Source: Eledone cirrhosa (taxonomy: Eukaryota). From it: DNA of 12,997 bases. Within the stretch, counting starts at the first letter, position 1, and every line of letters starts with the position of its first letter. The notes beneath the pieces were generated by a model. It worked only from the letters and a program-made list of their open reading frames with translations, ran no database searches and was not told the DNA's origin. Shown here in pieces: positions 1,797 to 9,056 of this stretch. The stretch is from contig CAXHJY010000229.1 of the NCBI GenBank assembly GCA_964016885.1, positions 1 to 12,997 of the forward strand, in the 5' to 3' direction. Made by a program: the position numbers and the translations under genes.

Positions 1797-1985
1797 ATAT
1801 ATATATATATATATATATATATATATATATATATATATATATATATGTATAAAAGTTATATTTAAATTGTTGGGATACAACAAGCAAATATTTTTATAAC
1901 TGACATAAAGCACTCAACAAATAATTGGAGTAAAAATACGATATTAACAAATGGAAACTATATTTATAAAACCATATTTATTTCA

Positions 1986-2039
1986 TTATACATATTTCAA
2001 GGACACCAAGTTAAATTATGGTGTGCTTTCTTCAGATAA
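1986..2039 (-). ncRNA. Minimal type I hammerhead-like motif (left arm of B)
   Basis: Minus strand reads TTAT-CTGAAGA-AAGCACACCA-loop-TGGTGTCCTT-GAAA-TATG-TA-TAA. Confidence 0.6.
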
Positions 2040-2184
2040 AATATAATATAGAGCAGTTTTATAAATAAATATTGACATACCCTTAAAGAATGCAACCATT
2101 ACTATCCGGGAGCTTCCACCAGTAATGGTTGCGTTCTTTAAGGGTATGTCAATATTTATTTATAAAACTGCTCTGTGTGTGTTT

Positions 2185-2238
2185 TTATCTGATGAAAGCA
2201 CACCATAATTTAACTTGGTGTCCTTGAAATATGTATAA
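2185..2238 (+). ncRNA. Minimal type I hammerhead-like motif (right arm of B)
   Basis: CTGATGA 2189-2195; helix II 2196-2205/2216-2225 (9 of 10 paired); GAAA 2226-2229; TATG; TA; AATAAA at 2242. Distal helix I TATTTATAAAACT/GGTTTTATAAATA. Confidence 0.62.
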
Positions 2239-2344
2239 TGAAATAAATATGGTTTTATAAATATAGTTTCCATTTGTTAATATCGTATATATATATATAT
2301 ATATATATATATATATGTGTGTGTGTGTGTGTGTGTATGTATGT

Positions 2345-2545
2345 GTGGAAGGAAGACGCAGGAGAGGTAGAGCACGAAAAATATAGGTGGAGGTGGTGAG
2401 AGCAGACCTCAGATCGCTGAAACTCACGGAGGAGATGACGAAGGGCCGTGACAAGTGGAGAGATGCTGTGCTGAATAGGACCCGTTCTACCCTTGCAAGT
2501 AGGGAAAAGGGGACGTAAAATGGTGATAATGAGGATGATGATGAT
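2345..2545 (+). mobile_element. 3' end of an RTE-clade LINE with (GAT)n tail
   Basis: Frame 2345-2518 reads VEGRRRRGRARKI*VEVVRADLRSLKLTEEMTKGRDKWRDAV..., matching the G.R.RGRP...W...V..D......DR..WR signature of RTE C-termini. TAG at 2384 replaces the conserved Trp. A GAT-repeat tail follows. Confidence 0.85.
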
Positions 2546-2569
2546 ATGTGCAAACATACGTTGGTCAAG

Positions 2570-4020
2570 TGTATATGTATGTATGTATGTATATATGTAA
2601 GTATGTATGTATGTGTGTGCGTATATATATATATATACAAACATATATATGTGTGTCTGTGTGTCTGTTTGTGTCTGTCTGTTTGTGTCTGCCTGTGTGT
2701 TTGTGTCTCTCTCTGTGTGTCTGTCTGTGTGTGTCTGTCTGTTTGTCTCTGTTTGTGTCTGTGTGTGTCTGTGTGTTTGTCTCTGTTTGTGTCTGTCTGT
2801 GTGTTTGTGTCTGTCTGTGTGTGTCTGTGTTTGTGTCTGTCTCTGTGTGTGCGTGTGTCTGCCTGTGTGTGTGTCTGTGTATGCGCGGGTGTGTGTCTGT
2901 CTGTATGTGTTTGTCTGTCTGTGGGTGTCTCTGCCTGCGTGTGTGTGTGTGTATGTGTGTTTGTCTGTCTGTCTGTCTGTATGCGTGTGTCTGCCTGTGT
3001 GTGTCTCTGTATGTGTGTATCTGCCTGTGTGTGTGTGTGTGTGTGTGTCTGCCTGCGTGTGTCTCTGTGTGTGTGTATCTGCCTGTGTGTGTTTGTCTGT
3101 CTGTGTGTGTGTATGCCTGTGTCTGTCTGTCTCTGTGTGTCTGTCTGTCTGTGTGTGTGTGTGTGTGTGTGTCTGTCTGTGTGTGTGTGTCTGTCTGTGT
3201 GTGTGTCTGTCTCTGTGTCTGTCTGTCTCTGTGTGTGTCTGTCTCTCTGTGTGTGTGTGTGTCTGTCTGTGTGTGTGTGTGTGCCTGTGTGTCTGTCTGT
3301 ATCTGCGTGTGTGTGTATCTGTGTGTGTGTGTGTGTGTATCTGTGTGTGTGTCTATATCTGTGTGTGTGTGTGTGTGTATATCTCTGTGTGTGTCTGTCT
3401 CTCTCTCTGTGTGTATGTCTGTCTGTGTGTATGTGTGTGCCTGTGTCTATCTGTGTGTGTGTGTCTGTCTCTGTGTGTGCCTGTGTGTCTGTCTGTATCT
3501 GTGTGTGTGTGTGTATCTGTGTGTGTCTGTATGTGTCTGTGTGTGTGTGTGTGTGTGTCTGTCTGTGTGTGTGTCTGTCTCTCTCTCTGTGTGTATGTCT
3601 GTCTGTGTGTATGTGTGTGCCTGTGTCTATCTGTGTGTGTCTCTGTGTGTGTGTGTCTGTCTCTGTGTGTGTGTGTGCCTGTGTGTCTGTCTGTATCTGT
3701 GTGTGTGTATCTGTGTGTGTCTCTGTGTGTGTGTGTGTGTGTCTGTCTGTGTGTGTGTCTGTCTCTCTCTCTGTGTGTGTCTGTCTCTGTGTGTGTGTCT
3801 GTCTGTGTGTCTGAATGTGTGTGTGTGTGTGTGTGTGTGTCTCTCTCTCTCTCTGTGTGTGTGTCTGTCTCTGTGTGTGTGTGTCTGTCTCTGTGTGTGT
3901 GTGTGCCTGTGTGTCTGTCAGTATCTGTGTGTGTGTGTCTGTATCTGTGTGTGTGTGTGTCTGTATCTGTGCGTGTGTGCCTGTGTGTCTCTCTCTGTGT
4001 GTGTGTGTCTGCCTGTGTTT
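2570..4020. repeat. About 1.45-kb compound (GT)/(GTCT) microsatellite with local higher-order repetition
   Basis: Nearly pure GT/CT dinucleotides. GTGCCTGTGTCTATCTGTGTGTGT recurs at 3437 and 3617 (180-bp period). Confidence 0.97.
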
Positions 4021-4140
4021 AAGTGTGAATATAAATAAGCAACGCAATGTTTGTATTCGTTTGTTTGTGTTTGTGTTAAACTGTCTAAATAGCAATGATT
4101 TTGTGTATTTACATACTACGTACGGCTGTATAGATATATA

Positions 4141-4512
4141 TACATTACTGTATGTATGTGTGTATATATATATATATATATATATATATATATATTTATA
4201 TATACTTCAATATACATACATACATATATATATATATATATATATATATATATACATTGCTGTATGTATGTGTGTGTATATATATATATATATATATATA
4301 TATATACTTCAATATACATACATATATATATATATATATATATACATTGCTGTATGTATGTGTGTATATATATATATATACTTCAATATACATACATATA
4401 TATATATATATATATATACATTACTGCATGTATGTGTGTATATATATATATATATATATATACATATGTATGTATATATGTACTTCAATATACATATATA
4501 TATACTTCAATA
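4141..4512. repeat. Minisatellite of about 4 units: TACATT[A/G]CTGTATGTATGTGTG-(TA)n-CTTCAATATACATACA-(TA)n
   Basis: Unit starts near 4141, 4253, 4343 and 4417. CTTCAAT anchors near 4205, 4307, 4381, 4483 and 4505. Confidence 0.9.
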
Positions 4513-4735
4513 AGCTTAAATAGATAATTGTTATTTAAACAAGTTACAATTAATGCTTGTAAAGTAACAGTATATGTACACGTACACCCCACACAGCCCC
4601 CGTATATATATATGTATATATATATGTATATATATATATGTATATATATATATATATATATCGTTTTCGGTTACTCTAGTTCAGAGTTAGAGTAAATGCT
4701 AGAAATAAATCATACTGTGTTGTTAACCTGTACAT

Positions 4736-7160: not shown

Positions 7161-7955
7161 TATATATACATATATATATACATATATATATATATACATA
7201 TATATATATACATATATATATATACATATATATATATACATATATATATATATATATACATATATATATATATATATACATATATATATATATATATATA
7301 TACATATATATATATACATATATATATATACACACATATATATATATATATATATATATATATATATATACATATATATATATATATACATATATATATA
7401 TATATATATACATATATATATATATATATATACATATATATATATATATATACATATATATATATATATATATACATATATATATATATATATACATATA
7501 TATATACATACATATACATATATATATACATACATATACATATATATATATATACATATATATATACATACATATACATATATATATATATATACATATA
7601 TATATATATACATATAGATATATATACACATATATATATATATACATATATATATATATACATATACATATATATATATATACATATACATATATATATA
7701 TATACATATATATATATATACATATATATATATATATATATACATATATATATATACATATATATACATATATATATATACATATATATAAATATACATA
7801 TATATACATATACATATATATATATATATATATATACATATACATATATACACATATATACATATATACATACATTTATATAATATGTATATAATATATA
7901 TATATATATATATATATATATATACACATATATATATATATATATATATATATAA
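7160..7955. repeat. (TA)n array punctuated by CA
   Basis: About 800 bp of TATATATACA-type repeats. Source of the spurious 265-305 aa ORFs. Confidence 0.97.
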
Positions 7956-7959
7956 TAGA

Positions 7960-8076
7960 AGGCGTGTGGCTGAGCGGTTAGAGAATTGGCTTCGCAATGG
8001 TGAAGTTGTGAGTTCGATTCCTGGAACAGGCGATGCGTTATGTCCTTGAGCAGGACACTTTATTTCACCTTGCTCC
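7960..8076 (+). mobile_element. tRNA(Arg)-derived SINE head with CORE-like segment (family 2)
   Basis: A-box TGGCTGAGCGG 7967-7977; CT-TCG-CA anticodon-like loop at about 7990-7996; B-box GAGTTCGATTCC 8010-8021. TGTCCTTGAGCAGGACACTT (8041-8060) resembles the start of the CORE domain (GTGACCTTGGGCAAGTCACTT). The 3' boundary is uncertain and may extend to about 8177. Confidence 0.78.
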
Positions 8077-8179
8077 TTCTACCTGGAGTTGCGACCGATA
8101 GATAGTATTAGCAATTGGAAAGACCAATGGAAACATTGTTGCCACGATTCTGATTTGACGAAAGTCGATCGCTCCTTAA

Positions 8180-8600
8180 AATATATATAACATATATATT
8201 TAATATATATATACTTATCTATATATATAAATTATGCATATGCATAATATACATATATATAATATATATGTATATATATATAATATACATATATACACAT
8301 ATATAATTTACATATATATATATATTAACATATATATATATATAATATATATATATTATACATATGTATAATATATAAATATATATATTATACATATGTA
8401 TAATGTATAATATAAATATATATAATATATATATATTATACATATGTATAATATATAAATATATATATAATATATATAAATATATATATAATATATATAT
8501 AATATATATACTTATGTATATATACATATTATACATATGTATAAAATATATATATAAATATATATATAAATATATATATAAATATATATATATAAATATA
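8180..8600. repeat. AT-rich cryptic minisatellite
   Basis: Recurrent ATATTATACATATGTATAA motif within TA repeats. The same motif resumes after 9500. Confidence 0.9.
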
Positions 8601-8738
8601 TATGCAAAGTTTTATTAAATTGTTGGGTTACAACGAGTAAATATTTATAACTGATATAAAAGCACTCAACAAGTATTTGGAGTATATTTACGATATTAAA
8701 TAAATGGAAACTATATTTATAAAACCATATTTATTTCA

Positions 8739-8793
8739 TTGTATATATTTCAGGGATATCATATTAAAAATATGGTATGCCTTCATCAGACAA
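8739..8793 (-). ncRNA. Minimal type I hammerhead-like motif (left arm of C)
   Basis: Minus strand reads TTGT-CTGATGA-AGGCATACCATATT-TTT-AATATGATATCCCT-GAAA-TATA-TA-CAA. Confidence 0.62.
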
Positions 8794-8952
8794 AATACAA
8801 TATAAACAGTCTTATAAATAGATAGATTTGACATACCTTACAACTTCGAACTTCCATTTAAAAAGTTGATTTGGTACCAAATCAACTTTTTGGAAGTTGA
8901 AGTTGTAAGGTATGTCAAATCTATCTATTTATAAGACTGTTTATATTGTATT

Positions 8953-9007
8953 TTGTCTGATGAAGGCATACCATATTTTTAATATGATATCCCTGAAATA
9001 TATATAA
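8953..9007 (+). ncRNA. Minimal type I hammerhead-like motif (right arm of C)
   Basis: CTGATGA 8957-8963; helix II 8964-8977/8981-8994 (12 of 14 paired); GAAA 8995-8998; palindromic TATA; TA; AATAAA at 9011. Confidence 0.62.
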
Positions 9008-9056
9008 TGAAATAAATATGGTTTTATAAATATAGTTTCATTTATTTAATATCGTA

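Follow-up and report, generated by a model that had tools for sequence, protein, structure and literature searches.

Two fold-back elements, here called B (1847-2288) and C (8604-9056), lie in a stretch of 12,997 nucleotides from Eledone cirrhosa (GenBank assembly GCA_964016885.1, contig CAXHJY010000229.1, positions 1 to 12,997), the whole of which is called the window below. Both are head-to-head inverted repeats embedded in (TA)n, and on balance they are best read as short, non-coding remnants of insertions of a Penelope-like element (PLE) in which the inversion was formed at insertion by two-primed complementary DNAs (cDNAs). The parts of this reading are held with different degrees of confidence. 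A PLE origin is judged highly probable by analogy with published elements, and the making of the inversion at insertion is only slightly less so; a two-primer route is preferred to a hairpin route with more modest confidence. The layout is of a known kind, already published in other animals. What is new is the family, which is uncharacterised and of high copy number (it could be among the families in the supplements to Craig 2021 and Cervera 2014). Also new are the length of the tails, two to three times that in published elements, and the geometry of B, which fits twin priming better than hairpin self-priming.

The features of the two elements and of the flanks of B are as follows, with the basis of each in brackets.

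1796-1846, no strand: flank of B at the tail end, a (TA)n target (sequence, tandem-repeat listing)
1847-1935, minus strand: one-sided tail of B, 89 nt, extending the left arm past the short end (pairwise comparison, sequence)
1936-2103, minus strand: left, tailed arm of B (pairwise arm comparison)
2099-2103 and 2121-2125: the 5-bp TTACT/AGTAA bounding the centre of B
2104-2120, plus strand: spacer or loop of B, 17 nt (read ends, arm comparison, sequence)
2121-2288, plus strand: right, tail-less arm of B, running to ATATCGTA/(TA)n (pairwise arm comparison)
2143-2150, plus strand: putative splice-donor-like motif G/GTATGT in B, about 40 nt downstream of the centre, with its mirror at 2074-2081 (sequence)
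2286-2347, no strand: flank of B at the short end, (TA)n then (TG)n (tandem-repeat listing)
8604-8688, minus strand: one-sided tail of C, 85 nt (pairwise comparison, sequence)
8689-8875, minus strand: left, tailed arm of C (pairwise arm comparison)
8871-8880, no strand: zero-loop, self-complementary centre of C, TTGGTACCAA (sequence)
8876-9056, plus strand: right, tail-less arm of C, running to ATATCGTA/TA-rich repeats (pairwise arm comparison)
8909-8916, plus strand: putative splice-donor-like motif of C, separated from the centre by 33 nt here and by 39 nt in its left-arm counterpart (sequence)

An earlier note on this DNA had described a palindromic layout with a one-sided tail of about 90 bp and a common right end, and this description holds: the tails measure 85-89 nt, and both right arms terminate in ATATCGTA followed by TA repeats. 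The tails likewise adjoin TA repeats, and all four outer ends of B and C fall on TA or AT beside TA runs; hence no target-site duplication (TSD) can be read. Most of the window is microsatellite (TA, TG and TC), interrupted by short islands of repeats, and a general repeat search of it was dominated by microsatellites. We take the donor-like motifs of B (G/GTATGT) and C to resemble the splice-donor consensus.

Each arm contains a hammerhead ribozyme motif, placed by a motif descriptor and by pair counts.

1981-2041, minus strand: small type I hammerhead of the left arm of B, core CUGAAGA at 2035-2029, intact
2183-2243, plus strand: small type I hammerhead of the right arm of B, core at 2189-2195, predicted cut after 2237
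8734-8795, minus strand: hammerhead motif of the left arm of C, in which a C at U16.1 breaks a core pair
8951-9012, plus strand: small type I hammerhead of the right arm of C, core at 8957-8963, with a palindromic helix III loop

The motifs read outward on opposite strands, so that the arms stand head-to-head, as is usual in PLEs. They are built from CUGANGA, a long helix II, GAAA and AUA, with a 6-bp helix I and a 2-bp helix III that has a near-palindromic loop. The descriptor was a relaxed, custom-made one; three of the four real arms satisfy it (the CUGAAGA of the left arm of B still fits), as do 3/20000 and 6/20000 shuffles of the two right arms. The left arm of C fails at U16.1, and its hammerhead is likely inactive as judged from its sequence. 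Consequently, the earlier claim of a hammerhead in each arm, outward on opposite strands, stands for the presence of all four motifs and falls short for the broken core of one. A comparison of B with C, which provide only two independent sequences, shows two helix II pairs changed on both sides, a one-sided change in a helix I pair and, in C, a broken pair in helix II. Among 40 of the 85 variant rows for the reads aligned to B (described below), no variant touches the invariant core bases; the variable positions lie in helix II, at N7 and in the loop of helix III.

Folded singly and unconstrained, the motifs mostly do not take a hammerhead shape, as is expected of motifs that need a dimer or a protein. 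Co-folding gave a helix III dimer in one of the three motifs tried, that of the right arm of C. The whole of B or C, on either strand, is computed to fold into one long hairpin (-253 to -269 kcal/mol) with the motifs inside; the earlier proposal that a hairpin of 170-190 bp sequesters its own ribozyme thus survives as a prediction of the computed fold. Small type I hammerheads in such an arrangement have been described in Schistosoma mansoni, where pairs with a long helix II lie 100-700 bp apart on opposite strands, and the tiny palindromic helix III of B and C resembles that of fly, rotifer and shrimp variants (PMC4209133). The S. mansoni pairs have G-C at 10.1-11.1, in contrast to A10.1-U11.1 in B and C.

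The combination of these features points to the endonuclease-positive (EN+) PLEs, to which B and C likely belong on the strength of analogy: both have an inverted, head-to-head, 5'-truncated repeat with a one-sided 3' tail, a type I hammerhead motif in the arms and an AT-rich or (TA)n site. PLE insertions have been reported to consist of an inverted 5'-truncated copy with a 30-40-bp tail at one end and a bias to (TA)n, and the formation of these inverted repeats and tails is named there as an open problem (Craig 2021, PMC8557442). Palindromes at head-to-head junctions have also been described (Arkhipova 2013, PMC3846280), and truncated PLEs have been named as the source of the minimal hammerheads that occur in pairs on opposite strands, 100-700 bp from each other (Cervera and de la Pena 2014, PMC4209133). 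The PLEs with an inverted pseudo-long terminal repeat (pseudo-LTR) and tail (Penelope/Poseidon, Neptune, Nematis, Hydra; PMC8557442, PMC3846280) share with B and C the 5'-truncated head-to-head inversion, the tail at one end, the junction palindrome, (TA)n targets without a readable TSD and a hammerhead in the repeat. They differ in that the tails of B and C are 85-89 nt rather than 30-40 and that B and C have no open reading frame (ORF) between their repeats. Insertion into (TA)n is shared by Naiads, in which canonical hammerheads are missing. In vitro, the protein of the Poseidon element PAc of Anolis, a predicted dimer, cuts both strands and extends both, and it starts reverse transcription at two sites that bound the tail; the hammerhead is dispensable for insertion (Frangieh 2024, PMC11167929). 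The target of PAc is AT-rich, as in B and C, whereas its ORF begins inside the hammerhead and no conserved frame follows the hammerhead in B and C. Recently active Penelope families have been reported in Octopus vulgaris (PMC13282606). Anatomy and the published PLE layout together back the Penelope-like reading that the earlier note had offered.

Miniature inverted-repeat transposable elements (MITEs) and fold-back DNA transposons are short, AT-rich, high-copy palindromes beside TA, as are B and C. Unlike them, B and C have asymmetric ends, varying centres and a ribozyme motif in the arms. A MITE identity is disfavoured on two counts: symmetric terminal inverted repeats are contradicted by the unpaired tail of 85-89 nt at one end, and a single fixed interior by the unrelated centres of B and C, by other junctions and by a low share of the B junction in one of the sequencing runs (X1, below). 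The MITE alternative, which the earlier note had named as a refuting outcome, is thus disfavoured by the ends and centres alike. Animal non-LTR retrozymes (PMC7761336; bioRxiv 10.64898/2026.07.22.740005) are also non-coding, have a type I hammerhead and are thought to be mobilised by PLEs. However, retrozymes are direct tandem repeats that give circular RNA, and B and C are inverted and never place two ribozymes on one strand. A retrozyme identity was rejected on these opposite strands and on a tandem-repeat listing that has no array over the arms of B.

The arms are nearly identical within a copy and divergent between copies (about 96% vs 83-85%), as had been noted earlier by eye. With gaps counted, the left and right arms agree at 95.8% in B (160 matches, 5 mismatches, 2 gap columns) and at 95.7% in C (178 matches, 1 mismatch, 7 gap columns), whereas B arms and C arms agree at 82.7-84.6% over the homologous part and at 74.6-76.1% over whole arms. 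The two tails match in 75 of 93 columns. The centres are unlike, again as described before: a 17-nt spacer stands against a zero-loop, and the inner 40 nt or so are unrelated (an equal or better score in 956/2000 shuffles). A local difference within B lies at 2167-2176 of the right arm, where TGTGTG replaces the TATATTA of the left arm (2041-2050) and of C; it amounts to three A-to-G changes on the sense strand, each preceded by T. This single case could reflect drift of the kind seen in microsatellites, or it could mean that one of two template RNAs had been edited.

The abundance of the family was probed in public sequencing runs. Thirteen runs were listed, ten of them with part of the stretch (small shares of it in X7-X10) and none recorded as RNA. 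Four were aligned, at a likeness of 80%, to positions 1850-2121, the left half of B. The alignments comprise 6552 of 17,142,217 contigs in X1, 29,391 of 12,467,656 raw reads in X11, 57 of 8,254,286 contigs in X4 and 23 of 13,709,327 contigs in X6, where X11 is a restriction-site-associated DNA (RAD) library of raw Illumina reads from another sample with the same species label as X1, and X4 and X6 have two other organism labels. The family is thus abundant in three labelled organisms. Peak summed depth in X1 is 3.9 million, compared with 5.6-13 for the long contigs listed, which as a rough reading suggests a number of arms of the order of 10,000, although summed contig depth is no copy number. 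The short end adjoins TA runs in 49 and 63 contigs of X1, 1141 reads of X11 and 2 and 2 contigs of X4, and the tail end adjoins (AT)n in one contig of X6 (a loose end before 1851), indicating two fixed outer ends for the family. The depth of the tail in X1 is about a quarter of the peak arm depth. The C-type helix II is a frequent variant, supported in X11 by loose ends with 5370 and 10108 reads and present in X4 and X6 too, indicating that B and C represent subfamilies. Pattern scans for relatives returned none in metagenome, prokaryote genome and viral contig collections; 37 metagenome loci matching a 19-nt degenerate pattern were set aside as chance, as extension by BLAST exceeded 30 nt in 0/37.

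The existence of subfamilies bears on what the arms can reveal. The earlier note had argued that each palindrome is rebuilt in its own copy, and the grouping of the four arms by copy was considered as proof. This was rejected because subfamily structure gives the identical pattern: if B and C are subfamilies, two palindromic masters would yield it as well. It is equally what would be seen if an old inverted pair had been homogenised after insertion by gene conversion between its arms. Long palindromes can undergo gene conversion. This origin is nevertheless very improbable, as B and C match common subfamily variants found genome-wide, so that copy-specific shared changes need not be invoked, and their arms still differ by 5 substitutions in B and 7 gap columns in C.

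The fold-back layout is not confined to this family. A second, unrelated family with the same layout occupies 1481-1795, with arms at 1481-1544 and 1654-1717 (58/64 alike), TA runs at both ends, a centre of about 110 nt with a decayed plus-strand hammerhead of which the 5' half is present, a tail of about 78 nt on the right, and its loop on the tailed arm. At 10630-10720, a zero-loop palindrome has 19 perfect pairs round GGGCGCCC, about 55 nt with a hairpin on one side, and flanking TA-rich runs; it is possibly a third, smaller fold-back with a tail.

Evidence on rebuilding comes from the inversion junctions in the reads. Of the 15 joint rows listed (22 in all), 11 change strand, two of them at the centre of B and nine elsewhere. 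The joints at the centre of B, 2100-2118 and 2103-2118, occur in 5 and 3 contigs of X1 (8 in total, depth 188 and 108, compared with the 5.6-13 of the long contigs listed) and in 159 and 106 raw reads of X11 (265 in total, from 17 and 23 starts). Raw reads crossing a B-type centre exclude a pure assembly artefact and demonstrate that the centre is recurrent. An origin of the palindromes in assembly, or in long-read fold-back, is accordingly extremely unlikely: the assembly may derive from X1, and none of the listed aligned pieces covers the stretch from end to end, but the crossing Illumina reads come from a different sample under the species label of X1, left and right arms are not identical, and the same asymmetric ends recur in two copies and in the second family. 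The assembly artefact that the earlier note had named as a refuting outcome is disfavoured by these reads.

Recurrence of the B centre would also be expected if pre-formed palindromic masters, either MITEs that target TA or non-autonomous fold-back derivatives of a PLE, were copied whole, with B and C derived from two masters and their differences being subfamily variants. In X1, however, depth declines near-linearly to an edge at 2102-2103 (by fit) and falls from about 1,000,000 at 2070-2079 to 808 at 2110-2119, indicating that few arms continue into the forward loop of B. By our estimate the share is below 3%, where half would be expected if all copies had B's centre. Other strand-change joints in X1 lie at 1944-1978, 2009-2098 and 2009-2099, at single-copy depth (the latter two are probably one junction). 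Together with ends asymmetric in a way not seen in a MITE, and with hammerhead motifs whose compensatory changes point to an RNA stage, these observations make whole copying of masters improbable. Rebuilding of the palindrome at insertion is consequently favoured for the family by the other junctions and the low share of the B junction in X1, and the comparison of B with C is no proof of it.

Given inversion at insertion, the two-primer mechanism would proceed as follows. By inference from PLE biochemistry, a protein with GIY-YIG and reverse transcriptase (RT) domains would nick both strands of a (TA)n run, and each nick would prime a cDNA on the element RNA, one at the short start (the ATATCGTA end) and the other 85-89 nt further 3' (the tail end). 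Both cDNAs would stop after 170-270 nt, and their 3' ends would anneal by microhomology, through TTACT/AGTAA in B and the self-complementary TTGGTACCAA in C. Fill-in would then leave a palindrome with a tail on one arm. Junctions would recur wherever such microhomology exists, which would explain a B centre common to several copies. The hammerheads would likely be passengers of the pseudo-LTR, and read-through RNA is predicted to fold into a hairpin of 170-190 bp that buries them and would serve as a substrate for editing or for small interfering RNA (siRNA) production. No twin-priming model for PLEs was found in a literature search, which did not reach subscription papers, and one may be published.

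The published model for head-to-head junction palindromes is self-priming, in which a short palindrome allows one cDNA, or else an antisense RNA, to fold back and be extended along itself (Arkhipova 2013, PMC3846280). The zero-loop palindrome of C and the 5-bp stem round a 17-nt loop in B are the remnants expected of hairpin primers. The near-identity of the two arms of a copy (about 96%) also fits the hairpin route, as does the position of the loop on the tailed arm of the second family (1481-1795). The geometry of B appears to speak against this model. The loop is read in reverse by the loose ends that follow 2100 (29 contigs, agreement 0.68) and 2103 (35 contigs, agreement 0.71), which suggests that it belongs to the tail-less arm, where it would be natural upstream sequence. 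If the cDNA of that arm were extended as a hairpin, no tail would result, as copy-back would finish at the short end; the version with an antisense template further requires antisense RNA. Self-priming of a PLE is consequently a credible but minority alternative.

An extension of the two-primer reading, put forward tentatively, is that the arms are run-off copies of the 5' end of the RNA rather than random truncations. Reverse transcription would proceed from two internal sites to the transcription start, placed in B and in C alike some 40 nt upstream of the donor-like motif. At each nick one such short cDNA would be made, and a dimeric enzyme would join the two cDNAs head-to-head. An intron 46 nt from its start has been reported in Penelope (PMC2377424).

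Several observations weigh against PLE remnants with an inversion made at insertion. No RT or GIY-YIG sequence is linked to the elements: none of the three scanned open frames of B (3/3) has a Pfam match. B and C are too short for an RT/GIY-YIG ORF (the longest frame inside C is 41 aa), and the Pfam scan of seven frames of the window gave a sole hit that is weak, below the cut-off and outside B and C. The tails are 85-89 nt as opposed to the published 30-40. The closing pair of helix II is A10.1-U11.1 in place of the conserved G-C, and Rfam scans gave no hammerhead: the whole window has 118 matches, all short of the gathering score, and the two right arms have 6 and 5, which are weak and unrelated. 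The centre of B is shared by several copies, a full-length third copy was not seen in the aligned runs, and summed contig depth cannot serve to count copies. Six of the nine other strand-change rows come from the RAD reads of X11, with 1-3 read starts each and polarity not given, and could be ligation chimeras. Finally, depth over the B loop in X11 is about 20% of inner-arm depth (307 vs 1503), far above X1. The molecules of X11 end at AATT sites (1865, 2014-2017), and the excess would be accounted for by a restriction-fragment bias favouring close inversions.

The remainder of the window holds further repeats. Two other hammerhead-like motifs stand apart from B and C: a single degenerate one on the plus strand at 5596-5730 (CCGACGA...GAAAC, with a palindromic helix III), which lies between TA runs and is not inverted, and a small type I motif of a different family near the window end at 12912-12970 (CUGAUGA...GAAA). 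One dispersed repeat is present in four pieces that are 87-91% alike (848-1005, 10405-10584, 10971-11059, 12389-12567); we take it to resemble a tRNA-derived short interspersed element with a Nin-type domain known from cephalopods. The island at 1146-1440 contains a 53-aa frame (1217-1375) with only a weak, unrelated Pfam hit, and the frame presumably resembles the C-terminal end of a long interspersed element ORF. A minisatellite occupies 241-731 (41-bp unit, 12 copies, 93% matches), a local direct duplication of about 45 bp was seen by eye inside a unique island at 6589-6685, and at 11447-11681 the 20-bp unit CCAGTGGTGAACCAACAAAC occurs four times with TA runs of varying length between.

The structure of B and C is a known one, and it matters mainly as material. 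The high copy number, short arms, long tails and readable junctions mean that counts of the loop-bearing arm and of microhomology can separate twin priming from self-priming without bench work. Such fold-backs also give long double-stranded RNA (dsRNA). Inverted Penelope copies give rise to siRNAs in Drosophila (PMC3681739), and lizard Penelope has been described as heavily edited and octopus as having unusually many near-perfect dsRNA loci (PMC5625713). If the run-off reading is true, the family would be a natural dataset for twin priming versus self-priming in PLE inversions, and PLEs would have a dedicated route that seeds the genome with thousands of self-contained dsRNA hairpins.

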